From NCBI GenBank assembly GCA_964394185.1, contig CAYMWM010000003.1, positions 1,193 to 65,192 of the forward strand: a stretch of 64,000 nt of DNA, in the 5' to 3' direction. The position numbers and the translations under genes are program-made. Source of the stretch: an uncultured Smithella sp. (lineage in GTDB: Bacteria; Desulfobacterota; Syntrophia; Syntrophales; Smithellaceae). A model generated the notes under the pieces. That model saw only the letters and a list, made by a program, of their open reading frames with translations. It was not told where the DNA came from and did not search any database. Position 1 is the stretch's first letter. Each line of letters opens with the position of its first letter. Shown piece by piece: positions 3,817 through 55,081 of the stretch.

Positions 3817-3822
3817 TTTGCT

Positions 3823-11747: not shown

Positions 11748-11902
11748 TTAAAAAAATTAATTTTATGTAAGTATGCTATGCATTAATTCAGTTTAATGTT
11801 ATCAAGGCTGTAAATAAAATATTCATGAGACTCGTAACAATTTTTATGAATTTACGCAAAATGAAATAGCATTATTTAATTAAAGGAGGAGCTTTCTTTT
11901 CA

Positions 11903-22776: not shown

Positions 22777-22996
22777 GACCATTCGATATAAAATACACAT
22801 ATTCATTTTCATCTGAGTAGCATCATTATTACGGTATTGGTACCGAAGTAGATTAAAGAGGTTCCGTTTGATGAATTCTTTAAATCATGATTGCATGCCC
22901 GCTTTTTTGATTCCTTTACCGTATTTTCACGGCACTGCCTTTGCTATGCGTTATTTCCAAAGATCGGGAAATTAAATTCCAGGAAAGGTGATCCCC

Positions 22997-23776
22997 ATGC
23001 CCAAGATTGTTAATCATGATGAATACCGGCAGGAACTGCTGGAGAAGTCTTTTCATTTATTTACCCGCAAGGGCTATACTAATATAAACATGAAAGAAAT
23101 TGCCGCTGAAATCGGTGTATCCACCGGTACTCTCTATCATTATTTCCCTTCCAAAGAAAATATGCTTGCCGAGATGATTTCCTGGATAGGCCAGGAAAAC
23201 ACCGAAGAATATATCAAACGAACAAGTTCGGTCGAAAGCATCAGCGACCGTTTTGATATGATTGTTGATTACTGGAAAGAAAAGGGCAAGCTGTATGAAT
23301 GCATCCTGCTTCTGGCCTTCGACATGTACCGCAATACGGATATTGAACACTGGAAACCGCTCTATGACGCTTTTGCTGAACGCTACACGGCCGGTATGTC
23401 GGAGAGGCTCAATATCTCCCGCCAGTTTGCCCGTTCCATATTCATTTATTTTCTCGGACTTTCCTTTCACGCCATTGCTACCGGCAGCGACACCGATGAA
23501 TACAACAGGCAAGTGGATTTCCTCGATGTCATATTCAGACCGTTGATTGTTGATGCCGGACAGGACATGGGTAAAGCGACTCGGAAATTCAGGGAAGTTT
23601 ACAGAACATTTCTCGCCAATTTGCCGGTTGTTAAAAAGGAAGCCATTGAAAAGACAATGGAAAATTCACAGACGGAAAAAACCGGAAAAAAGCTTAAAAA
23701 ATCCAAAACAAAAATAAATAAATCAGCATTGAACAAGTCGAATAAAAAACAATATTCGGTAAAGGAGGCACCATGA
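22997..23776 (+). CDS. TetR/AcrR-family transcriptional regulator with Lys-rich C-terminal tail
   Basis: N-terminal HTH LFTRKGYTNINMKEIAAEIGVSTGTLYHYFPSKE. The ATG at 22997 follows AGGAAAGG; the track ORF starts at GTG 22988. Confidence 0.85.
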   Translation: MPKIVNHDEYRQELLEKSFHLFTRKGYTNINMKEIAAEIGVSTGTLYHYFPSKENMLAEMISWIGQENTEEYIKRTSSVESISDRFDMIVDYWKEKGKLYECILLLAFDMYRNTDIEHWKPLYDAFAERYTAGMSERLNISRQFARSIFIYFLGLSFHAIATGSDTDEYNRQVDFLDVIFRPLIVDAGQDMGKATRKFREVYRTFLANLPVVKKEAIEKTMENSQTEKTGKKLKKSKTKINKSALNKSNKKQYSVKEAP

Positions 23777-25014: not shown

Positions 25015-25030
25015 TAAGGAGGCCAACACG

Positions 25031-26311: not shown

Positions 26312-26322
26312 GAGAGCAAATC

Positions 26323-26760
26323 ATGGAAGAAGCCAACAAGGGAGTCATTGACTTAACCGACAGAGTGCTTAAAGAACTTCTCAAAAAGCCCGGTTTTAAA
26401 GAAGGCGTCAGAACAGTGCTGCAGAATATTGATCCGGATTCCAGCCGCAGACTGGTCAGAACGATGATGTGGCAGGATCCGGAGTTTTTTCTCGGATTGC
26501 TCGGCGCAGTTCCCTCTATCGTTAATTCCCTTGCGCAGGGAACGGATGAAATGCTTACTCAGCTCAACGAAAAATTTTCTCCGCAGCTGCTTCATGATTT
26601 TATGAAGTCGATTTTTTTGTCGCTGGATAAAGATACACTGGAGAACATTGTCCGCAATGGAAAAATTCTGGCAACAAAATTATGGATTGTAGCGGAAGAA
26701 ACATACAATGAACAAAACGCAGCCAATAGCATTACGGGGGGAAAAGAACATGGAAAATAA
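26323..26760 (+). CDS. Hypothetical helical protein, member 1 of a local three-gene paralogue family
   Basis: The ATG at 26323 follows GGAGAG. Shares the pattern ..NIDPD..LV..MWQ(D/E)PE..L..LG(A/S)(V/I)P..VNS.. ..LNEKFS..LL.D.. with the next ORF. Confidence 0.6.
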   Translation: MEEANKGVIDLTDRVLKELLKKPGFKEGVRTVLQNIDPDSSRRLVRTMMWQDPEFFLGLLGAVPSIVNSLAQGTDEMLTQLNEKFSPQLLHDFMKSIFLSLDKDTLENIVRNGKILATKLWIVAEETYNEQNAANSITGGKEHGK

Positions 26761-27391
26761 CGCCGCAATGCCCGCCGCAGGCGGAGTAATGAAAGAAGTG
26801 TTGAGTACACCCTTTGTCAAAGATTTGATTCGCCTCAATCTGCAGAACATCAAACCGGAGAAAACGCATCCGCTCGTCAATACGCTTATCTGGCAGGAAC
26901 CGGAAGTTATTTTATCTGTTTTGGGTTCGATTCCTCCCGTTGTCAATTCCTGTACCGGCGCTCTGGCAGAAGCGGGAAAGCAACTCAATGAGAAATTTTC
27001 ATCGGAACTGCTCCGGGATTATGTCGGCAGCATTCTGAAGGATATCGATACGGAAGCATTGAAAGGTCTGGTTGAAGCTTATGTCGCTCTGGGGAAAAAT
27101 CTCTGGGACGCTTCCCCCGAATTCAGGGAGATGGTCGGCAAAGCATTAACTCAGGATGCACCGCCGCTCGTCGGCAAAGGAATCAGTTCGGCCTGTCGCT
27201 TTGTCAACGACGTCAGCAGGGAAGACCCGCAGGTGGTAAGCCGGTTTGTTTCGGATGTCGTGAAAAATATCGACGGCGAAGAATTTAAGGATGCGACCCA
27301 TACAATTGCCAACGCGTTTTTGGATCAGAAGCTGCATTTAATTTCCTGGACATGGCAGTTACTGCGCAAAAGAATGAAAAGAAGAAAGTAG
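26750..27391 (+). CDS. Hypothetical helical protein, member 2 of the local paralogue family
   Basis: Aligns with member 1 (LQNIKPEKTHPLVNTLIWQEPEVILSVLGSIPPVVNS..LNEKFSSELLRDY). The start at 26750 overlaps the member 1 stop by 11 nt. Confidence 0.6.
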   Translation: MENNAAMPAAGGVMKEVLSTPFVKDLIRLNLQNIKPEKTHPLVNTLIWQEPEVILSVLGSIPPVVNSCTGALAEAGKQLNEKFSSELLRDYVGSILKDIDTEALKGLVEAYVALGKNLWDASPEFREMVGKALTQDAPPLVGKGISSACRFVNDVSREDPQVVSRFVSDVVKNIDGEEFKDATHTIANAFLDQKLHLISWTWQLLRKRMKRRK

Positions 27392-27418
27392 TTATTAACA
27401 TGAATGGAGGCACGTTCC

Positions 27419-28651
27419 ATGAATGATGTTGAAAAACAGATTCAAACCGATCCCGCCGCCAAAGTAATAGGCGAAATTATCTGGAGATTTGCCAAAACAC
27501 CTCCGGCAAGAAATCTGGTTATGTCCGTTGTTCGTGCTGCGCTGAAGGACTGGTCGGGTGACAGCAGATTTAGGGAACACATATCAGCAAACCTGGAAAA
27601 GACCATTGATAATGTCCTTTCTCAGAGAGGAAATAACGAAAACAAAATTGCCGGAGATGCAAGTTACGCGGAAAGCCTTCGTCCAATTGTACGTGATTTG
27701 GTCGAAAACATTGATTTTGGCGAAATAAAGGAAGCAGCAGACTTTCACAAAGAAAACATCGGGGCCGCTGTCATGATGATCAATGAGGAGCTCTGGCGTT
27801 ATCCGGCCAAGGTCATTTGTTTGTTGTCACTGCTTCCTGCCGCCGCGAACATGACTGTGTCGGCGGCCAAGGAAACCCTGACGCCAATGAACAGGCTGGC
27901 GCCGGATCTGCTGGCCGATGTGGTTTTTTCTCTGGTTGATGATATTGACGGCAAAAATATCGGTGAACTGATTAATGAACTAAGTGAACTTGTTCGTAAA
28001 ATTCATACCGGCAGCACGCTTTTGGGCGAACCGGGCAAACCTCAGCTGCCCAACTCTTTAAATCGTCTGACAGGTGAAGTCATCAGCACGATTGATATCA
28101 ATCTGTTGCTGAAATCCAGAAAGCTTTTGGCGGAAATCAAGGAAGTCTCGCTGAAATCCTTCATTGACCAGCTGGAACTAAGCCCCGAACTTTCCAGTGA
28201 ATTTTTCCAGGATCATTTTCTTTCTATAGTGGCGTTTATCAGAAACTGGAGCCGCAAAGCCGACGCCTTTGAGCGTCTGTTTTCCGATGAAGACATTGCT
28301 CGTGAATTTGCTAAAGGTATGGGCGAGATTGACGCCCAGGAAGTGGCTAGTACGATCAGCATGTTGTGCGGCATTGTGAATCGTGTGCGTGCTGTTACGC
28401 CGGGTGTTATACGCAATACCCTGTCGCAGACGATAAACGCGATGGACGCGGACGAAGCCGGTGAGACGGTGCGCTGGCTTACCGAGGATATCGTGGAATC
28501 TCTTAAACCGGTGGCTTCCGAGGTACTGCCCCCTCTTATCAGAGGATTGGCGGACCTTTTAAGACCGGATCCCAACAATGGTTCCAAAGAAATTCAGGAA
28601 GCGCTTGCCTATTTTAATAACGCAATTGACGGGAAGGAGGCACCTGTATGA
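27419..28651 (+). CDS. Hypothetical helical repeat protein, member 3 (about three copies of the module)
   Basis: Contains the related segment NEELWRYPAKVICLLSLLPAAANM..MNRLAPDLLADVVFSLVDDIDGKNI and recurrent x-(I/M)-D-x3-(hydrophobic) motifs. The ATG at 27419 follows GGAGG. Confidence 0.6.
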   Translation: MNDVEKQIQTDPAAKVIGEIIWRFAKTPPARNLVMSVVRAALKDWSGDSRFREHISANLEKTIDNVLSQRGNNENKIAGDASYAESLRPIVRDLVENIDFGEIKEAADFHKENIGAAVMMINEELWRYPAKVICLLSLLPAAANMTVSAAKETLTPMNRLAPDLLADVVFSLVDDIDGKNIGELINELSELVRKIHTGSTLLGEPGKPQLPNSLNRLTGEVISTIDINLLLKSRKLLAEIKEVSLKSFIDQLELSPELSSEFFQDHFLSIVAFIRNWSRKADAFERLFSDEDIAREFAKGMGEIDAQEVASTISMLCGIVNRVRAVTPGVIRNTLSQTINAMDADEAGETVRWLTEDIVESLKPVASEVLPPLIRGLADLLRPDPNNGSKEIQEALAYFNNAIDGKEAPV

Positions 28652-29796
28652 TGAAGGAATTTATTGAGGCCTCCACGGCTCTCAACAACAAGCATGTAAA
28701 CCAGTGGAAGAAAAAAGGAAAAAAAGTTGTCGGTTATACCTGTTCCTATGTGCCCGATGAAATCTTTCACGCGGCGGGTATTCTGCCATTTAGAATCCGC
28801 GGATTCGGCGCTACCGAAAATACAATCGGGGACACATACTTTGGCCCCTTCATTTGCAGTCTTCCCAAGTGCATGCTGCAACTGGCCGGTGAAGGGAAAT
28901 TTAATTTTCTGGATGGCGCGATCATCACACCCGGTTGCGATTCAATGAGACGGCTCGATGAGTGCTGGCGCAAAGCCGGTAGTGATATGCCGGGTGTTAT
29001 ACCCCCATTCTTTTTTCATTACGGCGTTCCTCATAAGTATGAGGACTATACCATCAAGTGGTTTACGGATGAAACCAAGCGTCTGATTGCGGCGGTTCAA
29101 GAACATTTTAAAGTTGAAATAACCGAGGCTGATCTCAAGGAGTCCATCAGTGTTTATAATTACAGCAGAAAACTCCTTGAAAGATTTGACGCACTGCGCA
29201 CGATGGATAATCCGCCGTTCGGCGGCGGAGAAGCGCTAGCGGTCATTCTTGCCGGCACGACCATGCCCCGGGAGAATTACAACACCCTTTTGGGGAAATT
29301 CCTTGCCGATGCTCAAAAAGCTCCCGGAATAAAGGATCGTGTACGATTGATGCTTGTCGGCAGCGCCAATGATGACATCGGATTGGTTCGGGTGATGGAA
29401 GGATCAAAGGCGCTTGTGGTTGCCGATAATCTTTGTTTCGGGTCCCGTTTTTACACCGACCGGGTTGGCGAAGACGGCGATCCGGTTTTGGAACTGTCCA
29501 AACGCTATCTGGGGCACAATGATTGTCCCCGCATGTATGGCGATTATCAGAGAAGATTGAACATACTGGAACAGAAGGTCAAAAAAGCAAAAATTGACGG
29601 TATCGTTCTGCAGAACATCCGCTTCTGCGATCTTCACGGCGCGGAAAACGGCATCTTTGAACGGGACCTGGAAGCCAAAGGAATACCCTGCATGCGTCTC
29701 GAACGGGAATATGGTCCTTTGGTGGAGACGGGAAGAATGAAAATGCGCGTCGATGCTTTTATTGAGCGAATACAGCAGAGGAGGAAAGCAGCATGA
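28648..29796 (+). CDS. HGD-D family subunit, BcrC/BzdN/HgdB-like (small subunit) of an ATP-dependent reductase/dehydratase
   Basis: GYTCSYVPDEIFHAAGILPFRI (characteristic N-terminal C-x-Y-x-P-x-E motif) and conserved Cys in ITPGCDSMRRL and IRFCDLHG. 382 aa. Confidence 0.8.
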   Translation: MMKEFIEASTALNNKHVNQWKKKGKKVVGYTCSYVPDEIFHAAGILPFRIRGFGATENTIGDTYFGPFICSLPKCMLQLAGEGKFNFLDGAIITPGCDSMRRLDECWRKAGSDMPGVIPPFFFHYGVPHKYEDYTIKWFTDETKRLIAAVQEHFKVEITEADLKESISVYNYSRKLLERFDALRTMDNPPFGGGEALAVILAGTTMPRENYNTLLGKFLADAQKAPGIKDRVRLMLVGSANDDIGLVRVMEGSKALVVADNLCFGSRFYTDRVGEDGDPVLELSKRYLGHNDCPRMYGDYQRRLNILEQKVKKAKIDGIVLQNIRFCDLHGAENGIFERDLEAKGIPCMRLEREYGPLVETGRMKMRVDAFIERIQQRRKAA

Positions 29797-31199
29797 GAAA
29801 GGAAACCAGAGAATATAAATTTGACTGGATGATGTGGACCACCTTTGCGTCAGGTGCCAGATTGAAAAGCGGAACTCAAAAAGAATATAATGCGAGCTTG
29901 AAATATATTCCTTATTTCAGCCGGATTATCGATGTCCTGCTCAGTGCGGGAGAACCGGGCACGAAGTTTATCGAGATCTGCGCCAAGTACATGGAAAATC
30001 TGACTTTTGCGAAAGAGAAGGGTAAAAAGACAGCCGTCACAACCTTCTGTTTCTCACCCGCCATTTTTTACGCCATGGATATCGTGCCGATCTGCCTGGA
30101 AGTCCTCTCCGTGATGATGACTTTTGTCTATAAAAGAGGAACGGCTGAATTTTTGGATTATTGCAACGAAGCGGGCTTTACAGAAACATCCTGTTCTGCC
30201 CAGCGCGGTTCTATCGGCGCTTATCTGGCAGGTATCGGTACGGATGTGGACATGTTCGTGATGGATACGCCGGGGGTTTGTGATACCAACGCCAATGCTT
30301 TCTCTTTTGCCTCGGCTTATTTGAACAAACCATTCTTTCAACTGGATATGCCTCCGGATCTCACAGGGCAGCGTTCCAATGAATATCATCGTGAGGACTT
30401 TAAATCACTCATCTGCTTTTTGGAAGAACAGACAGGGAAAAAACTTGATTCTGAACGCTTGAGGGCAAGTCTTCGGGAACTCGCCAGACAGGATGAGATT
30501 ATTGCCGAACTGGAGGATCTGGCAAGAATGATACCGAATCCCCGGCCTGTTTCCTACAACCTGATGTTGTACGCTTCGCGGTTTCTTTTTGCCAGTATGC
30601 CGGAGTGTACAGAGGTGCTTGAAGCTATGTTAAAAGTCGCCAGGAAAAACGCCGCGAATAACATTTCCGGATTAAGCAGTGGAAAAGAAAAACTTCGGGC
30701 TTTTTTCTGCTACATCGACCATTACGCCCAGAACATGCAGTTCTGGAAGATGCTCGACGGCAATGGCATCTGCTATCAGGGCAATATCCTCAGTCATTTT
30801 TGGTCTCATAATTCGCCTTGTGTTGCTCATTATAATAAGGAAGAAGCGTCCTATACGATTGATACAAAAGATCTGGATTCGATGATTGACAGTCTGGGTA
30901 TGATCAATTCCCGCATGCCTATGATCAAATCCATCCGCGGACCCTACGACGCCCCCAATATGTGGCTGGAAGATACCCTGGGATTGGCGAAACTCTACAG
31001 CGCAGACCTTATTGTTTACAATGGAACACCGGGGTGCCGCAACACTTGGGGAATGGTGAAACTTCTGGCTCGCGATACCGAAAAGGCCGGCTATCCGACG
31101 TATATTATGTATGCCGACGCCTTTGATGAGCGCGTGCAGTCCTGGGAAGCGACAGAAGAACGGTTCATGGAATTTCTTAAGGTAAGGAGGCTTGTATAA
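29793..31199 (+). CDS. HGD-D family subunit, BcrB/BzdO/HgdA-like (large subunit)
   Basis: 468 aa. TFCFSPAIFYAMDIVPICLE, TSCSAQRG, PGVCDTNANAF and PGCRNTWG Cys-containing segments typical of the family. ATGA overlap upstream. Confidence 0.8.
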   Translation: MRKETREYKFDWMMWTTFASGARLKSGTQKEYNASLKYIPYFSRIIDVLLSAGEPGTKFIEICAKYMENLTFAKEKGKKTAVTTFCFSPAIFYAMDIVPICLEVLSVMMTFVYKRGTAEFLDYCNEAGFTETSCSAQRGSIGAYLAGIGTDVDMFVMDTPGVCDTNANAFSFASAYLNKPFFQLDMPPDLTGQRSNEYHREDFKSLICFLEEQTGKKLDSERLRASLRELARQDEIIAELEDLARMIPNPRPVSYNLMLYASRFLFASMPECTEVLEAMLKVARKNAANNISGLSSGKEKLRAFFCYIDHYAQNMQFWKMLDGNGICYQGNILSHFWSHNSPCVAHYNKEEASYTIDTKDLDSMIDSLGMINSRMPMIKSIRGPYDAPNMWLEDTLGLAKLYSADLIVYNGTPGCRNTWGMVKLLARDTEKAGYPTYIMYADAFDERVQSWEATEERFMEFLKVRRLV

Positions 31200-31990
31200 T
31201 GTTTGCAGCGGGATGCGATGTTGGTTCATTAACGTCCAAGGCCGTCATCATGAAGGACGGCAAGATCGTTGAATCCGTCATTATAAAATCAAAGGCACGA
31301 CCCTGGGAGTCGGCCGATGAGGTGATGAATATTGTACTATCGCGAGCCAACCTGACGATGCAGGATATCAAATACTGTGTCGGTACCGGCTACGGCCGCG
31401 ACAAGATATCTTTTATTAACGAGGCTGTCTCCGAGATTGCCTGCCACGGCATGGGAGCCCGCTGGCTGGTTCCATCCGTAAGAACGGTTATTGATATAGG
31501 TGGTCAGGACTGCAAGGCCCTGCGTCTGGATGACAAAGGCAATATGGTGAAGTTCATTACCAACGACAAATGCGCTTCGGGAACCGGACGGTTTCTCGAA
31601 GTGATGGCAAAAGTCATGCATCTGAATCTTGACGAACTGGGAGAGATGTCGGCGCGTTCCAGACAGCCCGTTACCTTTGCTTCGGCCTGTACGGTGTGGG
31701 CACAGGCTGACGTTATACAGCATTTGAATGACAAGGTGCCCATCGAAGACATTGCCGCCGGGGTCAATAACGCCATGGCCAGCCGTATGTCCACTCTCGC
31801 CAACAACATCGGTCTGGAGAGAGATGTGTGCATGACAGGCGGTGTAGCCAAAAACACTGGTGTGGTAAACGCGCTGGAAAAGCACCTTGGCATAAGGATT
31901 AAAAGGATTCGCCGCGAAGACCCGCAGCTTGCCGGCGCCATCGGCGCGGCGCTCTTTGCTGCGGAAAAAGCAAATGGAGGTGCTAAATGA
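31199..31990 (+). CDS. BcrAD/BadFG/HgdC-family (ASKHA) electron-activating ATPase, copy 1
   Basis: GCDVGSLTSKAV, IDIGGQDCK, DKCASGTGRFLE and TGGVAKN motifs. 263 aa. Confidence 0.85.
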   Translation: MFAAGCDVGSLTSKAVIMKDGKIVESVIIKSKARPWESADEVMNIVLSRANLTMQDIKYCVGTGYGRDKISFINEAVSEIACHGMGARWLVPSVRTVIDIGGQDCKALRLDDKGNMVKFITNDKCASGTGRFLEVMAKVMHLNLDELGEMSARSRQPVTFASACTVWAQADVIQHLNDKVPIEDIAAGVNNAMASRMSTLANNIGLERDVCMTGGVAKNTGVVNALEKHLGIRIKRIRREDPQLAGAIGAALFAAEKANGGAK

Positions 31991-32772
31991 TTACAGCGGG
32001 TTGTGATATCGGTTCTCTTACGGCCAAGGCCATTATTATGAAAGATGGAAAAATCATCGCCTCGGAAGTCATCCTTGCATCGGCTCAGCCTGAAAAATCG
32101 GCAACCGAAGTGATGAAACGTGCTATTGAAAAAGCCGGCATCAAAATGGAAGACATCGGATACTGCACGGGTACCGGCTACGGCCGTAAACACATCCCTT
32201 TCATGAATTCCGAAGAATCCGAAATTGCCTGCCATGCCAGAGGTGCGGTCTGGCAGGTACCTTCGGCTCGCACGGTGGTGGATATCGGCGGACAGGACGC
32301 CAAGGCTATCCGCGTGGATGAAAAAGGGAATGTCGAACGTTATGTTTACAACGACAAATGTGCTTCGGGCACAGGACGGTTCCTGGAGATTATCGCTGAT
32401 GCGTTGGACATTAAGCTGGAAGATTTGGGTTCCCTATCGGAAAAGGCAAAGGAAAAACTGACCCTTTCCAATCAATGCGTGGTTTTTGCTGAAACGGAAA
32501 TTATTTCCCTGGTGAACGATGGAAAAGAAATTGCCGACATTATCAATGCCCTGCATCAGGCCGTTGCCAACCGGGCGGCGTCATTGGCCAGAGGTATTCT
32601 TGTCGAGCCCGATGCCGTTATGACGGGCGGTGTAGCGAAAAATTCCGGCATGTTCGCGGCACTGGAAAGGGCTCTGGGTGTGAAACTGCACAAAGTGGAG
32701 AATCCCCAGATAAACGGGGCTCTGGGAGCGGCTCTTTTTGCAGCCGATAAAGTAAACGGTTCAGGGAAGTAG
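31987..32772 (+). CDS. BcrAD/BadFG/HgdC-family (ASKHA) electron-activating ATPase, copy 2
   Basis: GCDIGSLTAKAI, DIGGQDAK, DKCASGTGRFLE and TGGVAKN. 261 aa. ATGA overlap with copy 1. Confidence 0.85.
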   Translation: MITAGCDIGSLTAKAIIMKDGKIIASEVILASAQPEKSATEVMKRAIEKAGIKMEDIGYCTGTGYGRKHIPFMNSEESEIACHARGAVWQVPSARTVVDIGGQDAKAIRVDEKGNVERYVYNDKCASGTGRFLEIIADALDIKLEDLGSLSEKAKEKLTLSNQCVVFAETEIISLVNDGKEIADIINALHQAVANRAASLARGILVEPDAVMTGGVAKNSGMFAALERALGVKLHKVENPQINGALGAALFAADKVNGSGK

Positions 32773-32778
32773 GGGAAA

Positions 32779-33513
32779 ATGGAGCTTTTTGGAGAAACCC
32801 TCTCAGATATCAGAAAGTATATGGCGGGGAAAAACAGTGAGGCACGGGTTATAGAAGCGCAAAAAAATGCCTGGCCCCCGGGCGGGGGCAGAAATGTGGT
32901 TTTATCGGACGATATGGCGCTAGAATTGGGAAATCCCCAGATGAATTCCGTCTCCTGCCTGATATGGACACAAAATGCCGGTTTTGTTCATGACGGGAGA
33001 ATCAGTCTTATCGGTCCGGATATAAAAGAAAGCAGCGGGAAGAGTCTGCCCTTCGGGAAGATTGTTCTTGCCGAGGTTAGCGGATTTGATGAAGAGACGA
33101 CCTACGATAAATATAAGGAAATGGAAACCGTGCGATACGCTCTCGATCTTAAAGGATACATGATCAGGGCGGTATCGCAGTATCAGAGGGAATGGAGCCG
33201 AATCAGCAGGGAAGCCGTTCAAAAAGGTTTTTCCTTTGAAATCCTGGCCGGTTCTTTGAGAAATGAATATTTAAAGAAGGATTATATTCATGCCGTTGAA
33301 TTTATTTTTGTGACATCTAGCGCCGGTGATGTCGGTGAACTTCAGGAAATCACGAAAAACGTGGGCCGTAAGGTCAGCGCCCTCAACAAGATGTTAAGTG
33401 AAATGGATACCGATTGCGATGAGTGTGAGTACAACGATGTTTGTGATGAAGTCGATGAACTCAAAGGCATGAAAAAAAAGCGTGATGAAAAAAGGATAGG
33501 AACAAATGGATAA
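32779..33513 (+). CDS. Truncated acetyl-CoA synthase (AcsB/CdhC)-like protein lacking the Ni-binding A-cluster domain
   Basis: LIGPDIKESSGKSLPFGKIVL and EWSRISREAVQKGFSFE resemble the central GPD(I/L)..LPFG and W.RVSKD.A.K segments of ACS as I remember them. The protein ends at DCDECEYNDVCDE. Needs HMM confirmation. Confidence 0.55.
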   Translation: MELFGETLSDIRKYMAGKNSEARVIEAQKNAWPPGGGRNVVLSDDMALELGNPQMNSVSCLIWTQNAGFVHDGRISLIGPDIKESSGKSLPFGKIVLAEVSGFDEETTYDKYKEMETVRYALDLKGYMIRAVSQYQREWSRISREAVQKGFSFEILAGSLRNEYLKKDYIHAVEFIFVTSSAGDVGELQEITKNVGRKVSALNKMLSEMDTDCDECEYNDVCDEVDELKGMKKKRDEKRIGTNG

Positions 33514-34276
33514 AAAAACAAAGACGATAGCATTATGCGGAAAGGGCGGCGTGGGCAAAACATCTGTGTCGGCGCTGATGATCAAGGACCTTGCCCAAAG
33601 AAAAGACATCAAGGTGCTGGCCATAGATGCCGATCCGGCTGTGGGCCTCTGTACGGCGTTGGGCATACAAATCAGAAAGACCGTGGATGATATAAGAAAC
33701 GATTTAATCAAATCGATTAAAAAAGGAGAGGGGCAGGACAAAGCGGCCACGCTGAACATGCTCGATTACGAACTCTTTGATGCCCTGACGGAATTTAATA
33801 ATGTCGGATTGCTGGCGATCGGCAGGCCGGAATCCGAGGGTTGCTTCTGCAAGGTTAACTCTCTTTTAAAGGATATCATCCAGGATCTGGCGAAAAATTT
33901 CGATGTAGTTTTAATTGACGGGGAAGCCGGCGTCGAGCAGATCAACAGAAGAGTGATGAAAACAGTGGATCACCTGATTATGATATCCGATACATCAGCC
34001 AAAGGTGTGAATGTTGCCAACACCATCAAACATCTGGCCCAGGATAATAAGGCCGTGAATTATAAAAGCATCGGGATGATTTTGAACCGCGTTAGAGATG
34101 AACGTGAAGTTAAGGACATCGGAAAGAATACCTCCATTAATATTTTAGGCTGGCTGTCTGAAGACAACCTGATCAGGGAATTCGATTTTCACGGCAGGTC
34201 ATTTCTGGATTTTCCTGACGAAGCCGGTGCCAGCAAAACCGTAAAACAAATTATACAGGATTTGCAGATTAATTAG
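33506..34276 (+). CDS. CooC/AcsF-type MinD-family metal-insertion ATPase
   Basis: Deviant Walker A CGKGGVGKTS, IDADP, and a CxC motif in GRPESEGCFCKVNSLL, as in CooC nickel chaperones. The start overlaps the upstream stop by 8 nt. Confidence 0.75.
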   Translation: MDKKTKTIALCGKGGVGKTSVSALMIKDLAQRKDIKVLAIDADPAVGLCTALGIQIRKTVDDIRNDLIKSIKKGEGQDKAATLNMLDYELFDALTEFNNVGLLAIGRPESEGCFCKVNSLLKDIIQDLAKNFDVVLIDGEAGVEQINRRVMKTVDHLIMISDTSAKGVNVANTIKHLAQDNKAVNYKSIGMILNRVRDEREVKDIGKNTSINILGWLSEDNLIREFDFHGRSFLDFPDEAGASKTVKQIIQDLQIN

Positions 34277-34294: not shown

Positions 34295-35128
34295 ATGAAT
34301 ATTGCGGTGGTATATTTTTCGCAAACAGGCCAGACCCTGAAAGTTGCTGAAGCGATGGCGGAAAATCTGCGTGAAAAAAAGCATACGGTAAAGGTTTTGC
34401 CAATGCGGAAAGTAAAACCTGCCGATATTGCAATATGTGACTTGCTGGGCGTGGGATCTCCCTGCTTCGAGAGTCAGGCTCCGACACCGGTTCTTGACTG
34501 GCTTGGTAAGTGGCCTGCTCTTAACGATAAACCTGTTTTTGTCTTTGCAACTTCGGGCGGAGCGCCAGGCCGTGTTCTTTATGATCTTAACAGGGTGTTG
34601 CGCGTCAAGGGCGCCAGAGTCATCGGCGGGTTTATGAGCCGTGGTACCGTGCATCATCCTGCACCCTGCCTGATCGGTCGCCTGCCGAACCGCCCCAATT
34701 CCGAAGATTTGGCACAAGCCCGTGCCTTTGCTTCGGCAGTGGATAAATATATGCAGTCTTGCAGTACGGGCGTCATGTCGGAGAGCCGTCCGGACGCGCT
34801 CAAACCCATGTGGGGTTATTTTCACCTGATAGGTCTTGTCACGAAACCGTTCCTGCTGCGCATGGTACTTCCCAAACCAAAGGTGGATAAGAACCTATGC
34901 AATCAATGCGGGCTTTGCGCGAAAGAATGTCCGGTGAACAGCCTGACCCTTAAGCCGTATCCGGTACTGAATAGCCACTGCATCCGCTGTTATCACTGCC
35001 AGAATATCTGTCCGCAAAATGCCCTGAGTGAATCGTGGTGGTATGGAAATCTGGTTATATGGTTCCTTTATAACACAATCTTTTCCCGTCTTTTCGGGGA
35101 TCTGAAGCCGGGAGAAAGTATTTACTGA
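34295..35128 (+). CDS. Flavodoxin-like domain fused to 2x[4Fe-4S] ferredoxin domain, with hydrophobic C-terminal helix
   Basis: MNIAVVYFSQTGQT (flavodoxin FMN-loop motif), CNQCGLCAKECP and CIRCYHCQNICP, and the C-terminal WWYGNLVIWFLYNTIFSRLF. Confidence 0.8.
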   Translation: MNIAVVYFSQTGQTLKVAEAMAENLREKKHTVKVLPMRKVKPADIAICDLLGVGSPCFESQAPTPVLDWLGKWPALNDKPVFVFATSGGAPGRVLYDLNRVLRVKGARVIGGFMSRGTVHHPAPCLIGRLPNRPNSEDLAQARAFASAVDKYMQSCSTGVMSESRPDALKPMWGYFHLIGLVTKPFLLRMVLPKPKVDKNLCNQCGLCAKECPVNSLTLKPYPVLNSHCIRCYHCQNICPQNALSESWWYGNLVIWFLYNTIFSRLFGDLKPGESIY

Positions 35129-35162: not shown

Positions 35163-36299
35163 ATGGCAACATCCGGAAAAACCATGAAGGTATTTGAAGA
35201 ACTTTTGGAAAGTCCGCAGAATCGTCTGGTTGAACAGGCTCTACAGGATGGACGCATACCCATTGCCTATTCATGTTCTTATGTTCCCGAAGCCCTGCTT
35301 ATGGCGGACAAACTTTTTCCCGTACGTCTGCACACGCCCGGTGTCGCAGGCACCGAAATTGCGGACAACTATCTTTCCAGCCTCACTTGTTCTTATACCC
35401 GCAGCCTGCTGGAATTTACTATGGATGATCGTTTCGATCAAATTAAAGGCTGGGTATTCGTACCCGCCTGCATTCATATGCAGAGGCTCTATGACAATCT
35501 GGAATATCTGAAACATCCGGTTTTCAATCATGTGCTGGATGTGCCGCGGAAAGTGAATAAGGACACACTGGAATGGATGGCCGAAGAACTGAAAATTCTG
35601 GCGGATAAACTTGCCGCGCATTTCGGCGTGGACATGAGCGATGATTCAATCAAAAGAGCTATTCGTCAATGGAACGACTTTGCCGCTGCCGTCCAGTCTA
35701 TCGGTGAGTTGCGTAAAAAACCAAATCCGCCCGTAACCGGCACGGAATTTCATCAAATGGTAATGGCCGCGCTGGCCTCGCCCAAGGACCTTATTTTACC
35801 GGTTATCTCCAATCTCAAAAAAGAACTGGATGAGCGGGAAGGCATCAAGAAATACCGGGCGCGTCTGATGATTGTCGGCGGTCATCTGCACGATCCGGAT
35901 TTCATCAAAATCATCGAATCACAGGGTGGCTTGGTTGTGGCGGACCGTTTCTGTACTGGGACGATTCCCGGCTTTAAAACCATAGGACTTAACGGAGGCA
36001 ACCCGTACAAGACTCTGGCTGAATATGCCTTCGACAAAACACTTTGCCCGCGGATGATGGAGGAATTCGACCGTCGGCTGAACATGATTATCGATACCGT
36101 AAAAGAATACAAGGTGGATGGTGTGGTGTTGGAGATCATCAAATTCTGCGATCTCTGGGGAGTGGATTCCATGCCGCTGGTAACCGCTTTGCGCGAGACG
36201 GGCATCCCGGTGCTCAAATTGGAGCGGGAATACCGGCTCGGCGGGGAAGGTCAACTGCGCACACGCGTGCAGGCTTTTATCGAAAGCATGGGTAAATAA
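35163..36299 (+). CDS. HGD-D family small (BcrC/HgdB-like) subunit, second set
   Basis: AYSCSYVPEALLMADKLFPVRL N-terminal motif, FVPACIHMQRL and IKFCDLWG. 378 aa. Confidence 0.8.
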   Translation: MATSGKTMKVFEELLESPQNRLVEQALQDGRIPIAYSCSYVPEALLMADKLFPVRLHTPGVAGTEIADNYLSSLTCSYTRSLLEFTMDDRFDQIKGWVFVPACIHMQRLYDNLEYLKHPVFNHVLDVPRKVNKDTLEWMAEELKILADKLAAHFGVDMSDDSIKRAIRQWNDFAAAVQSIGELRKKPNPPVTGTEFHQMVMAALASPKDLILPVISNLKKELDEREGIKKYRARLMIVGGHLHDPDFIKIIESQGGLVVADRFCTGTIPGFKTIGLNGGNPYKTLAEYAFDKTLCPRMMEEFDRRLNMIIDTVKEYKVDGVVLEIIKFCDLWGVDSMPLVTALRETGIPVLKLEREYRLGGEGQLRTRVQAFIESMGK

Positions 36300-36316
36300 T
36301 TTGATAAGGAGAATGC

Positions 36317-37831
36317 ATGAAACTCAATACGGTTATTGATAATACCAAAGCCAAAATGATGGATTTGCCATTCATTACAAAGAGATTTCTTCGAAACTCC
36401 TGGGCCGGATACCTTTTTCGCGGACCGAATCCCCGCGATGCGGCTGTTTTTATAAAATACTGGATTATGAACTGGGCGGCTATTTTCTACTGGATTGGCG
36501 AATCTATAATTAAACTGGGCCCTGTCGGATTCACCCGCGCGCTGATTAAAAATCCCTGGATACTGATTTTGCTCAGGGTCAATGGCGCCTCCAACCGTAT
36601 GGTGCTCGGTCGAACCGGCATGTATCACGATTCCATCTGTCTGACCATGCATACCATTTGTCTGGGCGTAATCGATCAACTGCGCCAGATGCTGTTTGAT
36701 CCCGAGCGCCTGGTTGTCTTCGAGGATCTCGTTCCCTATGATATCGGACGGGCTATGGGATTGAACTGTTACCTGCTCGAACTGATGGGTATTGTTTTGC
36801 CCATTCTCTATTCCGATGCTTCCTTGCCGTACATCGATGAAGCGGAAAACTCGGGTATGAATCCCGATGCCTGCAGTTTACCCAAGGCCACCGTGGGCAT
36901 GGTCATCAAGGGTCATATGCCCAAAGGGGTGGCCATGGTAAGTTCCAACATGCCCTGCGACGCGGGGGCTGCCTCCTATGCCTTCATCGAGCGCGCCTTT
37001 AATGTTCCCACCTACCGGGTGGACGCGCCTTATTTTTTCTACAACGAACGGGCGGAAAAGCTGTTTGGCAAGGATATTGACGGCATGATTGCCTGGCTGG
37101 AGGAACATACCCCCGGACGCATGGACTGGGATGAAATGCGCAAAATCTGTGAAGGCCGCAACCGCATGCTGGAAATGGAGACGGAGCTCTGGGAAATGAT
37201 TAGAGTCAAACCCGCGCCGCTGGCCTGCGAGGCGGTGTGGTTGAGCCACATCTGGCATTTCAATGTCACGGCTGGTTATCACCGGTCGGTCAAATTTTAT
37301 GAAAAGCTCCTAAAAATGGCGCGCAGAAATTATGAAAATAAAATTTCCGCCACAAAAAATGAGAGATATCGGGCGGTGCTCTGGAACCCGCCGTTTCTCC
37401 ATTTCAGCGATATTTTCAACTGGGTAGAACGCACCTACGGTGTAGTTCTTATCAATGACAGCATGACTTACAATCATCATGGTCCCATCGATACGACCTC
37501 GAAGGAAACCATGATCAGGGATTGGGGCAGGACCGTCATGCAGGGGCCCATGGTTCGCCATACGCGCGGACCGGCTGAGAACTATCTGGACGATATTTTC
37601 CGCATGTATGAGCAGTTCAGTCTCGATATGGTCTGGGTAGCCAACCATGTGGGGTGTAAAGGCGGTCAGGCCATGAACGGCATCCTGCGGGAGCGGTGCC
37701 GCGCCAAAGGCATTCCCCTGCTCATTCTGGATTACGACCTCTCCGATCGAAGGATCGTATCGCATGACAACATGATGAAGCAGGTGGATTTCTTTATGGA
37801 AAACGTCATGAAGGCAAATCGCCTGAATTAA
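36317..37831 (+). CDS. HGD-D family large subunit with ~110-aa hydrophobic N-terminal extension (copy A)
   Basis: 504 aa. DACSLPKATVG, SNMPCDAGAASY and VANHVGCKGGQA conserved Cys segments. About three-quarters of aligned positions look identical to 40071-41591 by eye. Confidence 0.8.
   Translation: MKLNTVIDNTKAKMMDLPFITKRFLRNSWAGYLFRGPNPRDAAVFIKYWIMNWAAIFYWIGESIIKLGPVGFTRALIKNPWILILLRVNGASNRMVLGRTGMYHDSICLTMHTICLGVIDQLRQMLFDPERLVVFEDLVPYDIGRAMGLNCYLLELMGIVLPILYSDASLPYIDEAENSGMNPDACSLPKATVGMVIKGHMPKGVAMVSSNMPCDAGAASYAFIERAFNVPTYRVDAPYFFYNERAEKLFGKDIDGMIAWLEEHTPGRMDWDEMRKICEGRNRMLEMETELWEMIRVKPAPLACEAVWLSHIWHFNVTAGYHRSVKFYEKLLKMARRNYENKISATKNERYRAVLWNPPFLHFSDIFNWVERTYGVVLINDSMTYNHHGPIDTTSKETMIRDWGRTVMQGPMVRHTRGPAENYLDDIFRMYEQFSLDMVWVANHVGCKGGQAMNGILRERCRAKGIPLLILDYDLSDRRIVSHDNMMKQVDFFMENVMKANRLN
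37538..37818 (+). repeat. Near-identical 281-nt tract shared with 41295-41575 (3' ends of the duplicated HGD-D genes)
   Basis: Gap-free collinear alignment at offset 3757. It includes a 41-nt run of perfect identity (cggtgccgcgccaaaggcattcccctgctcattctggatta), so synonymous sites are conserved. Confidence 0.85.
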
Positions 37832-37847
37832 AGATAGAGGAGTTACA

Positions 37848-39158
37848 ATGGGTCACATTGCTGCCAAGGACATATTTCGCCGGGTTGGAGATAAACTGGA
37901 TAGCCTCCATGTCCGATGCTCGTGGAATGATGATCTCAAGGCATTGTTGAAGGCGCTCTTTACCGAAGAAGAGGCCGAAATTTTTGTCAAGATGCCTTAT
38001 GTGTTTTCGGACTTGAATCGCATAAGCAAGATTACCAGATTGCCAAGAGAGCATACTCGGCAATTACTTAATAGCTTATGCAGCAAGGGGCTCGTCGTAG
38101 ATATCTGGATTAACGACCGCTATCATTATATGCCCTCGCCCATGATCATCGGCGTGTTTGAATTCACCATGATGCGAACAGGCAAAGACGCCAAACCCGC
38201 AGAATGGGGACCGCTGTTTTATCGAGTGCTCGAGAACAAAGAGAGTTTCTACCATCCCAATGCGGGAGCAGATCAGGTTATGTCACCGGCGAGAGTCTAT
38301 CTTCATGATGAATCTGTCCTGCCGGATGAATACACGCGCATATTGGACTACGAATCGGCCACACACATCATAGATACATCCTCGAAATGCGCTATAGGTA
38401 TCTGTTCCTGCCGTCATGAAAAATTGCATGCGGGCGTAAAAAAATGCGACCTGCCTCTAGAAACCTGCGCCAGTTTCGGTTGGGCTGCCGATTACCTCGT
38501 CCGCCATAAAATGGCGCGCGAGGTTACGAAAGAACAGATGAAGGATAATATGGCCCTATCCCGTGAAAAAGGTCTGGTCTTTTGCGGCGACAATGTCCGG
38601 CGCAATGTAACCTTTATCTGTCAATGCTGTTCCTGCTGCTGCAACCTGTTGCTGGGAGTTAACCGGCACGGCTACCCCAATACGCTTGTGACATCAAGCT
38701 TCATCGCCACGGTGGATGAAGCTGCATGCACGGGCTGCACCAAATGTTACAAGGCCTGTCCGGTAGAGGCCATTGAAATAATTGAAAAGCAAGCTTCCGC
38801 CAAACCCCGCAAACTGGCTGTCGTCAAAGAAGATTTGTGTCTCGGATGCGGCGTATGCACAATGCAATGTGCCCAAAAGGCTATTAAAATGGAAAAAAGA
38901 CCGGAGCGCTACATTCATCCGGAAACGACTTTTGAGCGGGTGTTGCTGCAATGCCTGGAGCGGGGCACGCTGCAAAACCAGATATTCGACAATCCCGAGA
39001 GCCTTTCTCAGGAATTCATGCGTGGTTTGATTAAAGGGTTCATGAAACTTGTACCCGCCAAACAGATTGAGATGAATAAAACATTACGATCCAGTTTTCT
39101 GGCTTTGGGCGGAATGGTCATCAGCCTGAAGAACAAAAGCTGGATCAAGGAACTTTAA
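37848..39158 (+). CDS. Cys-rich Fe-S protein: N-terminal winged-helix-like region, CxxxCxC and CxCCxCCC motifs, plus 2x[4Fe-4S] ferredoxin motifs (copy A)
   Basis: CAIGICSCRHEKLHAG..C..C, FICQCCSCCCNLL, CTGCTKCYKACP and CLGCGVCTMQC. 436 aa. Confidence 0.75.
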   Translation: MGHIAAKDIFRRVGDKLDSLHVRCSWNDDLKALLKALFTEEEAEIFVKMPYVFSDLNRISKITRLPREHTRQLLNSLCSKGLVVDIWINDRYHYMPSPMIIGVFEFTMMRTGKDAKPAEWGPLFYRVLENKESFYHPNAGADQVMSPARVYLHDESVLPDEYTRILDYESATHIIDTSSKCAIGICSCRHEKLHAGVKKCDLPLETCASFGWAADYLVRHKMAREVTKEQMKDNMALSREKGLVFCGDNVRRNVTFICQCCSCCCNLLLGVNRHGYPNTLVTSSFIATVDEAACTGCTKCYKACPVEAIEIIEKQASAKPRKLAVVKEDLCLGCGVCTMQCAQKAIKMEKRPERYIHPETTFERVLLQCLERGTLQNQIFDNPESLSQEFMRGLIKGFMKLVPAKQIEMNKTLRSSFLALGGMVISLKNKSWIKEL

Positions 39159-39181
39159 ATAAATACATGAAGGAGATTGAC

Positions 39182-39973
39182 ATGACGAAGAAATATTACG
39201 GCGGCTGCGATGTCGGCTCCACAACCGGCAAAGCGGTCATTCTTGATGAAAGCGGCAACATGGTTTCCAGCGCCATCGTTCCCAGTGAAATTGATCCGGA
39301 ATTGACCTCTGTATTGGCTCTGGAGAAGGCCTGCGCAATGGTGGATGGCTTAAAAAGCTACAAAGAGCTGGCTTATCTTGTGGGTACGGGCTACGGGCGG
39401 AATGAGGTCTCTTTTGCCAACGAAAATATTTCTGAGATCAGCTGCCACGCCATGGGGACTTTTTCCTGCGCGCCTTTAGTCAAAACTATTGTGGATATCG
39501 GCGGGCAGGATGTAAAAACGATTTCCTTAAACGGCGATGGTTCGGTGCTGGAATTTGCCATGAACGATAAATGTGCCGCCGGTACAGGAAGATTCTTCGA
39601 GGCCATGAGCCGTATCTTCCGGATGGATCTCAATGAATTTTCATCGCTGTCTTTGAAGGCCAACAAGATTATTCCGGTTACCGCCCAGTGCAGTGTCTTC
39701 GCGGAGAGTGAGGTCATCAGTCTGCTGGCGCGCCGCAATCCTCCCGAAGAAGTAGCAGCAGGAATTCAGGCGGCGGTTTCCAAGCGCTGCTTCACATTGC
39801 TCAAACGAATCGGTATGCAGCCTCTGGTGACCGTGACGGGTGGATGCGCCAAAAGCAAGGGACTGATTAAATCATTGACCAAAGTCATTGGCATGGAAGT
39901 GACGCCTCTGCCGGTAGATCCCCAGATAATTGGCGCACTGGGAGCTGCTGTATTTGCCCGACGCCGGCAGTGA
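39182..39973 (+). CDS. BcrAD/BadFG/HgdC-family (ASKHA) activator ATPase, copy 3
   Basis: GCDVGSTTGKAV, DIGGQDVK, DKCAAGTGRFFE and TGGCAKS. The ATG at 39182 follows AAGGAG; the track start is 39167. Confidence 0.85.
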   Translation: MTKKYYGGCDVGSTTGKAVILDESGNMVSSAIVPSEIDPELTSVLALEKACAMVDGLKSYKELAYLVGTGYGRNEVSFANENISEISCHAMGTFSCAPLVKTIVDIGGQDVKTISLNGDGSVLEFAMNDKCAAGTGRFFEAMSRIFRMDLNEFSSLSLKANKIIPVTAQCSVFAESEVISLLARRNPPEEVAAGIQAAVSKRCFTLLKRIGMQPLVTVTGGCAKSKGLIKSLTKVIGMEVTPLPVDPQIIGALGAAVFARRRQ

Positions 39974-40070
39974 ATATAGTAGTTGATAATTTTGGTGCTT
40001 TAAAAATTAAATTGGAAAAGAGGCCAGTCTTATTCGGAAGCAGGAACAACGTATTTATGGTGAGTCTTAC

Positions 40071-41591: not shown

Positions 41592-41622
41592 GGTTGTTTT
41601 TATTTCATGAGGCATAGGAGAC

Positions 41623-42939: not shown

Positions 42940-43195
42940 AGCTAGGAGAACTTTTTCATTAAGCGAAAAAATAGACTTTCTATATCGTCAATAACCAGCC
43001 ACAATCATTAAGCATTGGAGTTGAAAATAAAAAAATTGACAAAAAGTATTAAAATTTTTTACAAGGAGATCATTTAAAAGGAAGAAAGAAGGCATTGCTG
43101 CAAATCGATGAACAACTGGTAGCCATCAGAGGCTCAATTTTACAGAGGGAAGTAAAAATACAGGGGAAAAATTAGTTTCTAGCAAGGATGATTAA

Positions 43196-43606: not shown

Positions 43607-43631
43607 TTTTTAATAGGATAAGAGGCGAACA

Positions 43632-44737: not shown

Positions 44738-44763
44738 TTTTGCAACAAGGAGGAAGTAAATCA

Positions 44764-53475: not shown

Positions 53476-53581
53476 GAGGCTCCGGCGTTTTACCCCCTGA
53501 ATATATGAAGCTATTCCTTTAATTTAATTATAAGCAGTTTTGATTTCGAATAAAGCATTAGTATATCCAAAGGGAGGATGC

Positions 53582-55069: not shown

Positions 55070-55081
55070 GAGGAAACAAGA

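Follow-up and report, generated by a model that had tools for sequence, protein, structure and literature searches.

A conserved accessory gene pair related to acetyl-CoA synthase and CooC in a class I benzoyl-CoA reductase/2-hydroxyacyl-CoA dehydratase-family system

Acetyl-CoA synthase (ACS; AcsB/CdhC) is, to our knowledge, so far known only within the carbon-fixation machinery of CO dehydrogenase and ACS (CODH/ACS) or acetyl-CoA decarbonylase/synthase (ACDS). Its natural methyl donor is a corrinoid protein, and archaeal cdh operons carry a CooC-like gene beside cdhC; Gregg et al. reportedly found in 2016 that AcsF, a paralog of CooC, inserts Ni into ACS. Class I benzoyl-CoA reductase (BCR)/2-hydroxyacyl-CoA dehydratase (HAD) enzymes stand at the frontier of radical enzymology at low potential. 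Here, we analysed a stretch of 64,000 nucleotides from an uncultured Smithella sp. (contig CAYMWM010000003.1; this whole stretch is referred to as the window), in which a homolog of the ACS middle domain and a predicted CooC-family ATPase are encoded directly behind the four genes of a BCR-like reductase. At this locus, a system of the class I BCR/HAD family is joined by an accessory module derived from ACS, which is conserved and was previously undescribed.

The gene pair and its protein families

The two open reading frames (ORFs) are named ACS-mid (ORF 32779-33513) and CooC-like (ORF 33506-34276), and related loci in other genomes are numbered L0xx. The pair and its motifs are located as follows:

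32779..33513, + strand: ACS-mid, stand-alone ACS A2-domain protein with a Cys3 tail, 244 aa
33190..33207, + strand: EWSRIS motif of ACS-mid (residues 138-143), putative CoA-adenine-binding site
33415..33444, + strand: C213-x2-C216-x5-C222 of ACS-mid, putative vestige of the ligands of the A-cluster cubane, unchanged in 76/76 orthologs of full length
33506..34276, + strand: CooC-like, MinD-family ATPase of 256 aa, CooC1 as best PDB match, Pfam AAA_31 and CbiA
33539..33562, + strand: deviant Walker A motif GKGGVGKT of CooC-like (residues 12-19), kept in 70/71 orthologs
33842..33850, + strand: C113-F-C115 of CooC-like, putative metal-binding motif, invariant in 71/71 orthologs

ACS-mid and CooC-like overlap by 8 nt; ACS-mid starts 6 nt past the fourth BCR-like gene, and 18 nt separate the end of CooC-like from a flavodoxin-ferredoxin gene. 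An earlier interpretation made from the DNA letters (the sequence-only reading) had given the same coordinates, overlap and spacings, all of which were borne out, and every motif it quoted is present (LIGPDIKESSGKSLPFGKIVL, EWSRISREAVQKGFSFE and DCDECEYNDVCDE in ACS-mid, GKGGVGKT and EGCFCK in CooC-like).

The same reading had held that ACS-mid resembles only the central part of ACS, and Pfam, NCBIfam, PDB sequence searches and fold comparison all agree with it. As it had predicted, ACS-mid matched the Pfam family CdhC (PF03598; E = 2e-13, 50.9 bits at a cut-off of 24) and CooC-like matched CbiA; the latter protein matched AAA_31 as well. The NCBIfam ACS models are covered by ACS-mid over only ~310-472 of 705 positions, and their equivalog cut-offs were not reached (41-50 bits vs 356-809). 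A phmmer search of the PDB retrieved ACS chains only, at Moorella residues 330-481. We modelled ACS-mid with AlphaFold2 (AF2) from an alignment containing 15 family members (pLDDT 79, pTM 0.78) and compared the model with the PDB by Foldseek, the structural comparison that the sequence-only reading had proposed. All 23 chains matched at E ≤ 1e-3 are ACS, with E = 2e-11 for the shared fold and ~170 residues aligned at a root-mean-square deviation of ~3 Å, and the next match had E = 0.5. ACS-mid is therefore a true homolog of the middle (A2) domain of ACS.

This homolog is not confined to the window. When 1.84 billion cluster representatives were searched with a profile, 203 ACS-mid clusters (50% identity) matched at E ≤ 1e-30, and the 150 of these 203 that were listed have lengths of 113-308 aa, mostly ~230-270 aa. 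A word-indexed database yielded 282 matches to the single ACS-mid sequence and 836 to the profile. The protein is annotated as hypothetical by NCBI and as "CO dehydrogenase/acetyl-CoA synthase beta subunit" by JGI; the latter label could lead reconstructions from metagenome-assembled genomes to infer a Wood-Ljungdahl pathway that is absent.

Two regions of ACS-mid appear to retain residues of functional relevance in ACS. Within the EWSRIS motif, W139 and R141 are invariant in 77/77 ACS-mid sequences, down to ~28% identity. W139, R141 and S143 align with Trp427, Arg429 and Ser431 of Moorella ACS, and Trp427 corresponds to Trp405 of the Clostridium autoethanogenum enzyme. In the acetyl-CoA-bound structure of ACS, the ligand lies mostly on A2 and its adenine is π-stacked on this Trp405 (bioRxiv 10.1101/2024.08.05.606187).

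The second region is the cysteine motif at the C-terminal end. As a reference for its alignment with MAFFT we used five ACS fragments that span the A2/A3 junction, found with the Moorella A2 segment as query, which show FYSC(506)xxC(509)QSFAPNHVC(518)...GLC(528)G...SCGC. C213, C216 and C222 were placed on ACS Cys506, Cys509 and Cys518, with the loop between the second and third cysteine shorter by 3 residues; their equivalence to the A-cluster cubane ligands is plausible. The sequence-only reading had placed the stop of ACS-mid where the A-cluster motif begins and had noted the lack of Cys-Gly-Cys. The alignment concurs, showing in ACS-mid no counterpart of Cys528 and no Cys-Gly-Cys/SCGC Ni site; the chain ends in a helix, with the stop within about 30 residues after C222 and no remaining A3. 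Lacking Cys528, the Ni-Ni site and A3, ACS-mid cannot be an acetyl-CoA synthase. Judged from these alignments, it appears to be an ACS paralog cut down to A2 and the first ~20 residues of A3, with the predicted CoA-nucleotide site and, probably, three of the four cubane cysteines kept and the Ni-Ni site lost.

For CooC-like, CooC1 (3kje) is the best match in the PDB (E = 2e-17; best MinD E = 6e-9), and its CFC motif aligned to the CYC metal site of CooC1, in line with the CooC hallmarks claimed earlier. In the surrounding RPExxGC[Y/F]C context, R107, E109, G112 and both cysteines are kept in 71/71 orthologs and P108 in 70/71; Cys11 is mostly conserved as well. No NCBIfam model matched CooC-like at or above its cut-off, and matches to the NifH/BchL/CfbC families were weak (Pfam Fer4_NifH E = 4e-6; NCBIfam matches). 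By its sequence, the second gene thus encodes a CooC-family ATPase, closer to CooC than to the MinD/ParA/NifH families, and it is family membership alone that points to an involvement of nickel in the pair.

The weak NifH-type matches could also be read as a sign of a second ATP-driven electron module of NifH type, in which a CooC-like dimer would bridge a [4Fe-4S] cluster on its two CxC motifs and electrons from the flavodoxin-ferredoxin would reach the reductase by way of a Cys3 cluster in ACS-mid. Four cysteines where the two chains of a dimer meet could in principle ligate a cubane, the cysteines of ACS-mid would descend from [4Fe-4S] ligands, and in the window the gene of an electron carrier lies 18 nt downstream. 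We consider this improbable: the NifH-type scores all lie far under their cut-offs, RPExxGCxC matches the metal site of CooC and leaves the second Cys ligand of NifH without a counterpart, the module already has a two-subunit electron activator of the ASKHA type, and blastp places a flavodoxin-ferredoxin gene downstream of the pair in just 6 of the 76 loci described below.

The partner reductase and conservation of the module

The genes upstream of the pair encode the following subunits:

28648..29796, + strand: BzdN-like HGD-D subunit, probably with an [8Fe-9S] double-cubane cluster; Pfam HGD-D E = 2e-82
29793..31199, + strand: BzdO-like HGD-D subunit, probably catalytic, with a three-Cys [4Fe-4S] cluster; Pfam HGD-D E = 8e-47
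31199-31990 and 31987-32772, + strand: two BcrAD/HgdC-type ATPases, a BzdP/Q-like electron-activating heterodimer; Pfam BcrAD_BadFG E = 1e-57 and 3e-59

Pfam thus resolves the four BCR-like genes, recognised as such in the sequence-only reading, into two HGD-D and two BcrAD genes. In the BzdN-like subunit, Cys32/70/97/263/293/327 are near-invariant (56-58 of 58 sequences), and the [8Fe-9S] ligands of BzdN in the BzdNO crystal structure are Cys36/73/100/263/293/327 (PMC11971306). Cys134/163/415 of the BzdO-like subunit are invariant in 59/59 sequences, and the gap between the second and third of them is 251 residues, as it is among Cys95/128/380, the ligands of the catalytic [4Fe-4S]-OH2 cluster of BzdO (PMC11971306). 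Both BcrAD subunits carry an invariant Cys125 and Cys164, in keeping with the cluster-bridging cysteines of ASKHA ATPases, and pass the cut-off of the NCBIfam model CoA_E_activ; of the BCR models, BzdQ scored best for this pair of subunits (195-206 bits), below its cut-off of 380. For 28648-29796, the double_cubane, HadC, BcrC and BzdN models all remained below cut-off (BzdN 136 vs 454), and the BzdO model scored 24 vs a cut-off of 449. Scores so far below the equivalog cut-offs show that the partner is not an ortholog of benzoyl-CoA reductase, and the same cysteine pattern and spacing as in BzdN and BzdO make it a member of the BzdNOPQ-type class I BCR/HAD enzymes. This pattern had escaped the sequence-only reading, as had the retention in ACS-mid of the CoA-adenine-stacking Trp and of three of the four cubane ligands.

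We scanned one genome per GTDB species, obtained 76 loci and searched these by blastp with the proteins of the window. Their hosts comprise Smithella and other Syntrophales, many Desulfobacterales, Spirochaetota, Bacillota, Actinomycetota, Myxococcota, Binatia, SAR324 and Archaeoglobi. One locus (L047; NZ_AP024488, 2.90-2.92 Mb) belongs to the cultured isolate Desulfoluna limicola ASN36, which makes experiments on the module feasible. The gene order is almost universal: a helical protein, the BzdN-like and BzdO-like subunits, two BcrAD subunits, ACS-mid and CooC-like. At least 68 of the 73 loci with enough flanking sequence encode CooC-like no more than 3 kb downstream of ACS-mid, a count that leaves out L054 and L064, where CooC-like is present with a start over-extended by the ORF caller; the two genes are adjacent (≤150 nt) in 60 of the 73. 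A BcrAD gene lies within 2.5 kb upstream of ACS-mid in 59/71 loci, and HGD-D genes occur anywhere in the locus in 67/76; six of the nine loci that lack them are bounded by contig ends. This recurrence of one gene order across several bacterial phyla and Archaeoglobi strongly supports a linkage to BCR-like genes that is not incidental, as the sequence-only reading had presumed.

That reading had also found the window free of CODH, the corrinoid iron-sulfur protein (CFeSP) and methyltransferase (MeTr), and Pfam scans of ~50 further ORFs of at least 150 aa in the window revealed none of them. Nor is any of the three a recurrent neighbour of the pair in the 76 loci, and an independent, pre-annotated JGI contig (L077) carries the same module and no CODH. 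We clustered 536 unassigned neighbour genes, the most frequent extra neighbour being a glucose-methanol-choline (GMC)-type flavoprotein (25/76 loci); no CODH/ACS family was present among the ten most recurrent extra-neighbour clusters that were tested, or among the 25 most-matched of 110 Pfam families in all 67 unassigned ORFs of at least 500 aa, a list that covers each family with at least three matching members. Further recurrent neighbours are GntR and TetR regulators, CoA ligases, histidine kinase, ABC ATPase, enoyl-CoA hydratase, short-chain dehydrogenase/reductase (SDR), aldehyde:ferredoxin oxidoreductase and thiolase.

Truncation of ACS-mid relative to ACS and its JGI label as an ACS beta subunit might suggest the decaying remnant of a CODH/ACS operon that has come to lie near BCR genes by chance. 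The neighbour families tested or listed, devoid of CODH/ACS, leave this reading barely credible; a pseudogene or an incidental linkage is ruled out by the 203 clusters, by motifs that stay invariant down to 28% identity and by synteny across domains in 76 genomes. Homology to ACS is significant, and it is not CODH/ACS operons that the pairs flank; the sequence-only reading could have failed on either point.

We further compared pairwise-distance matrices (mirror-tree) for 35 loci with all seven core proteins. The distances of CooC-like correlate with those of ACS-mid at r = 0.76 vs 0.51-0.64 with the other five proteins, and the partial r of ACS-mid and CooC-like is 0.61 after the mean of the four BCR subunits is regressed out. 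ACS-mid correlates with the four BCR subunits at r = 0.76-0.82, the BCR subunits among themselves at 0.78-0.90, and the partial r between ACS-mid and any single BCR subunit is ≤0.29. The co-evolution suggests that ACS-mid belongs to the enzyme and CooC-like to ACS-mid.

These correlations bear on a minority possibility that we take seriously, namely that the two proteins would act transiently in assembling or repairing the HGD-D clusters ([8Fe-9S] or [4Fe-4S]-OH2), with ACS-mid as scaffold and CooC-like as ATP-driven insertase. The sequence-only reading had put forward such a maturation or scaffold role first, and an extra redox subunit as its other suggestion. The CooC family consists of metallocentre maturation ATPases, with CooC1 the closest solved relative here; the pair is located at the 3' end of the reductase genes, whose products are predicted to carry unusual clusters, and a cluster could be bound for a time by the Cys3 motif with its many acidic residues. 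The possibility is weakened, however, because BzdNO produced in E. coli holds both its [8Fe-9S] and its [4Fe-4S] cluster without a dedicated factor (PMC11971306), and because CooC-like co-evolves with ACS-mid and not with HGD-D (partial r 0.61 vs 0.29 and -0.21). It also offers no reason for retention of the CoA-adenine Trp and the Arg in all 77 ACS-mid sequences.

Three of the 76 loci have two more genes between those of ACS-mid and CooC-like, and all junctions overlap or abut (L012:10731-12571, L014:10731-12571 and L015:10731-12568). One encodes a methyltransferase of the MtaA/CmuA family (URO-D fold) and the other a corrinoid protein of the MtbC/MtaC type with a DPHDLG motif; the window does not share this insert. 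The three loci are 83-93% identical and represent one lineage only. As the methyl donor of ACS is a corrinoid protein, the insert may bear on the function of ACS-mid; O-demethylation of a methoxylated substrate could account for it just as well. On the former understanding, ACS-mid would retain ACS-like organometallic or methyl-handling chemistry with corrinoid proteins, which we regard as very improbable, given the restriction to a single lineage, the other explanation available for the insert and the absence of the Ni-Ni methylation site from ACS-mid.

A SufC-like ABC ATPase and a SufB/D-core gene are located downstream of the module in L077 (L077:12268-14140) and likewise in L010, L011 and L013. 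We rejected a link to Suf: the arrangement is confined to a single lineage (loci >90% identical), stands behind a gene on the opposite strand and is probably coincidental.

A proposed role for the pair

From the homology, motif retention, synteny, translational coupling and co-evolution that we observed, we infer CoA binding, the nature of a metal centre, a client-chaperone relation and docking to the reductase, and we tentatively propose, with a confidence that falls a little short of even, that the pair is a conserved accessory module of a distinct ATP-dependent class I BCR/HAD subclass, with ACS-mid as a CoA-binding metallo-accessory subunit and CooC-like as the ATPase that loads its Cys3 centre. 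(i) ACS-mid would bind CoA, either free or as a moiety of the acyl-CoA that serves as substrate or product. (ii) Beside this CoA site, the three cysteines would ligate a metallocentre, most likely a site-differentiated [4Fe-4S] cluster, possibly with an added metal. (iii) A CooC-like dimer would load or complete the centre via its CxC site and ATP hydrolysis, in parallel to CooC acting on CODH and AcsF on ACS. (iv) ACS-mid would then assist the reductase, as its accessory subunit or as an adaptor, in handling substrate or admitting electrons, and would not be a general maturase.

Several observations weigh against this proposal. Acetyl transfer has been linked to Arg383 and His386 of C. autoethanogenum ACS (R405 and H408 in Moorella; bioRxiv 10.1101/2024.08.05.606187), and in ACS-mid these residues are not clearly kept, being aligned to M115 and to V118 or Y120. 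The Cys3 region has a pLDDT < 50 in the apo AF2 model, and the C-terminal 72 residues searched on their own against the PDB gave no ACS match, so that the equivalence of Cys3 to the A-cluster ligands rests on one MAFFT alignment and on position. BzdO itself binds the whole CoA moiety, and an extra CoA-binding subunit is not obviously needed. The co-evolution is suggestive and not rigorous, since the 35 loci are few and phylogenetically non-independent. Finally, L046, L060 and L062 have no adjacent CooC-like gene, and in L053, L057 and L065 the pair occurs without HGD-D genes in the available sequence despite adequate flanks.

The whole-CoA binding by BzdO also leaves unsupported the idea that ACS-mid replaces the CoA-binding elements of BzdO.

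The pairs without HGD-D/BcrAD genes are located at L057:10001-17088, L065:9995-11504 and L053:2201-3805. In L057, the pair follows a sigma-54 two-component regulator and precedes genes for enoyl-CoA hydratase, CoA-transferase and 3-hydroxyacyl-CoA dehydrogenase; L057 and L065 both have a gene of the AIM24 family upstream.

An arrangement such as that of L057, where the pair stands beside beta-oxidation genes and a regulator in the absence of HGD-D, would suit a different function, that of ACS-mid as a sensor or carrier of CoA or acyl-CoA with a structural (e.g. Zn) Cys3 site and of CooC-like as a MinD-type assembly or positioning ATPase, both free of metal-cluster chemistry. Such a function would also agree with the retention of CoA-site residues but not of acetyl-transfer residues, and with MinD/ParA relatives as the next-best matches of the ATPase. 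We assign it a low probability, as the CxC motif is invariant in 71/71 orthologs within the context of the CooC metal site, the three cysteines of ACS-mid align with cubane ligands, and the genes are tightly coupled in translation inside an enzyme operon.

The proposed metallo-accessory role can also be extended to a stronger form, which we judge distinctly unlikely. ACS-mid would be a stoichiometric fifth subunit of a new BCR-type radical enzyme subclass and carry a minimal ACS-derived Cys3 [4Fe-4S] cluster, possibly bridged via the Cys509 equivalent to Ni or another metal delivered by CooC-like; situated beside the bound CoA thioester, this centre would be directly involved in catalysis or in the handling of electrons or acyl groups. 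If this were true, Ni-Fe-S chemistry of the ACS/CooC type would enter ATP-dependent acyl-CoA reduction, in one lineage together with corrinoid-dependent methyl transfer, and the ACS machinery would have its first use outside the Wood-Ljungdahl/ACDS pathways.

Gene neighbourhood and comparison with described systems

Positions 22988-57220 of the window form one acyl-CoA catabolic island, in which the following further genes surround the module:

22988..23776, + strand: TetR-family regulator at the head of the cluster, Pfam TetR_N E = 9e-16; its stop overlaps the next start by 4 nt
23773-25014 and 24995-26311, + strand: two adjacent acyl-CoA dehydrogenases (ACADs), Pfam Acyl-CoA_dh domains
26242-26760, 26708-27391 and 27404-28651, + strand: three Pfam-less paralogs of 172, 227 and 415 aa, the 415-aa protein being part of the conserved core
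34295..35128, + strand: fusion of flavodoxin and 2x[4Fe-4S] ferredoxin (EFR1), likely electron donor, outside the core; EFR1 100.5 bits vs a cut-off of 75

The island begins with the TetR gene, the two ACADs, the three Pfam-less paralogs, two HGD-D and two BcrAD genes, ACS-mid, CooC-like and the EFR1 flavodoxin-ferredoxin, which also matches Pfam Fer4 and Flavodoxin. It continues with two HGD-D pairs and an extra HGD-D gene, with one BcrAD gene and two polyferredoxin-like paralogs among them, and ends with nitroreductase, GMC flavoprotein, GntR, thiolase, CoA ligase, two ACADs and SDR. From TetR onward, the genes are spaced by -70 to +34 nt. The called starts of 24995 (TTG) and 26242 (ATG) reach 20 and 70 nt back into the preceding genes; elsewhere, the orthologs begin further downstream, and the true starts are therefore probably internal (e.g. 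Met13 of the 24995 ORF). Upstream regulators of the TetR or GntR type are recurrent in related loci.

The same arrangement of two ACADs upstream of the module is found in ~20 loci, including the archaeal L070 and L073, and likewise in L077; a second pair of adjacent, divergent ACAD genes is located at 53540-56203. Such ACAD pairs resemble heteromeric ACADs for bulky substrates, as in the degradation of steroid side chains. Among the three Pfam-less paralogs, the products of 26242 and 26708 are 39% identical and that of 26708 is weakly similar to that of 27404. The 415-aa helical protein (27404) has neither a Pfam match nor a PDB sequence match. Usable orthologs of it were obtained from 49/76 loci, archaea included, and in intact arrangements their genes directly precede that of the BzdN-like subunit; the family diverges fast, with a mean pairwise distance of 1.66 vs 0.5-0.9 for the enzyme subunits. 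We know of no bzd or bcr operon of which this helical protein, ACS-mid or CooC-like forms a part.

The stretch 35163-47339 contains the HGD-D pairs 35163/36317 and 44740/46152, the extra HGD-D gene 40071 and the single BcrAD gene 39167, together with paralogous 2x[4Fe-4S] proteins of 436/438 aa at 37848 and 41623, the latter with a weak TrmB-like match at its N terminus. Many other loci, too, have this 'set 2' HGD-D arrangement behind the CooC-like gene. The GMC-oxidoreductase-like flavoprotein of the window is encoded at 47360-48724, and its relatives usually lie upstream in loci of Spirochaetota and Desulfobacterales. At the other side of the island, the low-GC region 2270-13315 (0.35-0.45) contains five B12-binding radical SAM genes (2270, 6284, 10335, 11903 and probably 13481, which has no Pfam match at E ≤ 1e-5), of which at least three are alike in size and domain layout, two more radical SAM genes (7810 and 8951), a tetratricopeptide repeat (TPR) protein and a GT2 glycosyltransferase; sugar-nucleotide genes follow up to 22570. 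This region looks like a separate envelope or natural-product island that is unrelated to the pair.

Comparison with ACS (AcsB/CdhC) shows that ACS-mid shares its A2 fold and sequence homology, has the adenine-stacking Trp with the adjacent Arg and Ser, appears to keep the first three cubane cysteines (506, 509 and 518) and is encoded alongside an ATPase assigned to the CooC family. Unlike ACS, it lacks A1, all but ~20 residues of A3, Cys528 and the Ni-Ni site with its Cys-Gly-Cys, and it occurs in BCR-like acyl-CoA operons, where CODH, CFeSP and MeTr are not recurrent neighbours. In a preprint on the phylogeny of ACS as a whole (July 2026), A2-A3 and A1-A3 are the only forms listed. Recruitment of an ancient domain and its CooC-type partner to a different use would be evident from a large family of A2-only proteins that spans domains of life and is tied to BCR-like enzymes.

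With CooC and AcsF, CooC-like has in common the GKGGVGKT motif, a CxC at the position of the CooC1 metal site and an ACS-derived protein encoded beside it. It differs from them in its own RPExxGC[Y/F]C context, in the mostly conserved Cys11 and in the lack of a nearby CODH or full-ACS client, ACS-mid being the sole ACS-like candidate client.

The double-cubane cluster protein (DCCP; NF040772) belongs to the same superfamily as the BzdN-like subunit; NF040772 is the top NCBIfam match of 28648-29796 (157 bits), and the cluster of the latter is probably [8Fe-9S] as well. In contrast to DCCP, the score stays under the cut-off of 350, the cysteine spacing is of BzdN type and not that of the seven-Cys motif, and the subunit would form a heterodimer with a three-Cys partner.

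The Bzd-type BCR (BzdNOPQ; PMC11971306) resembles the partner enzyme in its two HGD-D subunits with the six-Cys pattern of BzdN and the three-Cys pattern of BzdO and in its two ASKHA ATPases. It differs in its flanking genes, since paired ACADs and no benzoyl-CoA pathway genes flank the module described here. The combination of ACS-mid, CooC-like and BCR-like genes was not described in the searchable full-text literature. Relative to BzdNOPQ as described (PMC11971306), the 415-aa helical protein, ACS-mid and CooC-like are added, and these three extra conserved components hint at new needs in cofactor or substrate handling and would define a widespread anaerobic acyl-CoA pathway.

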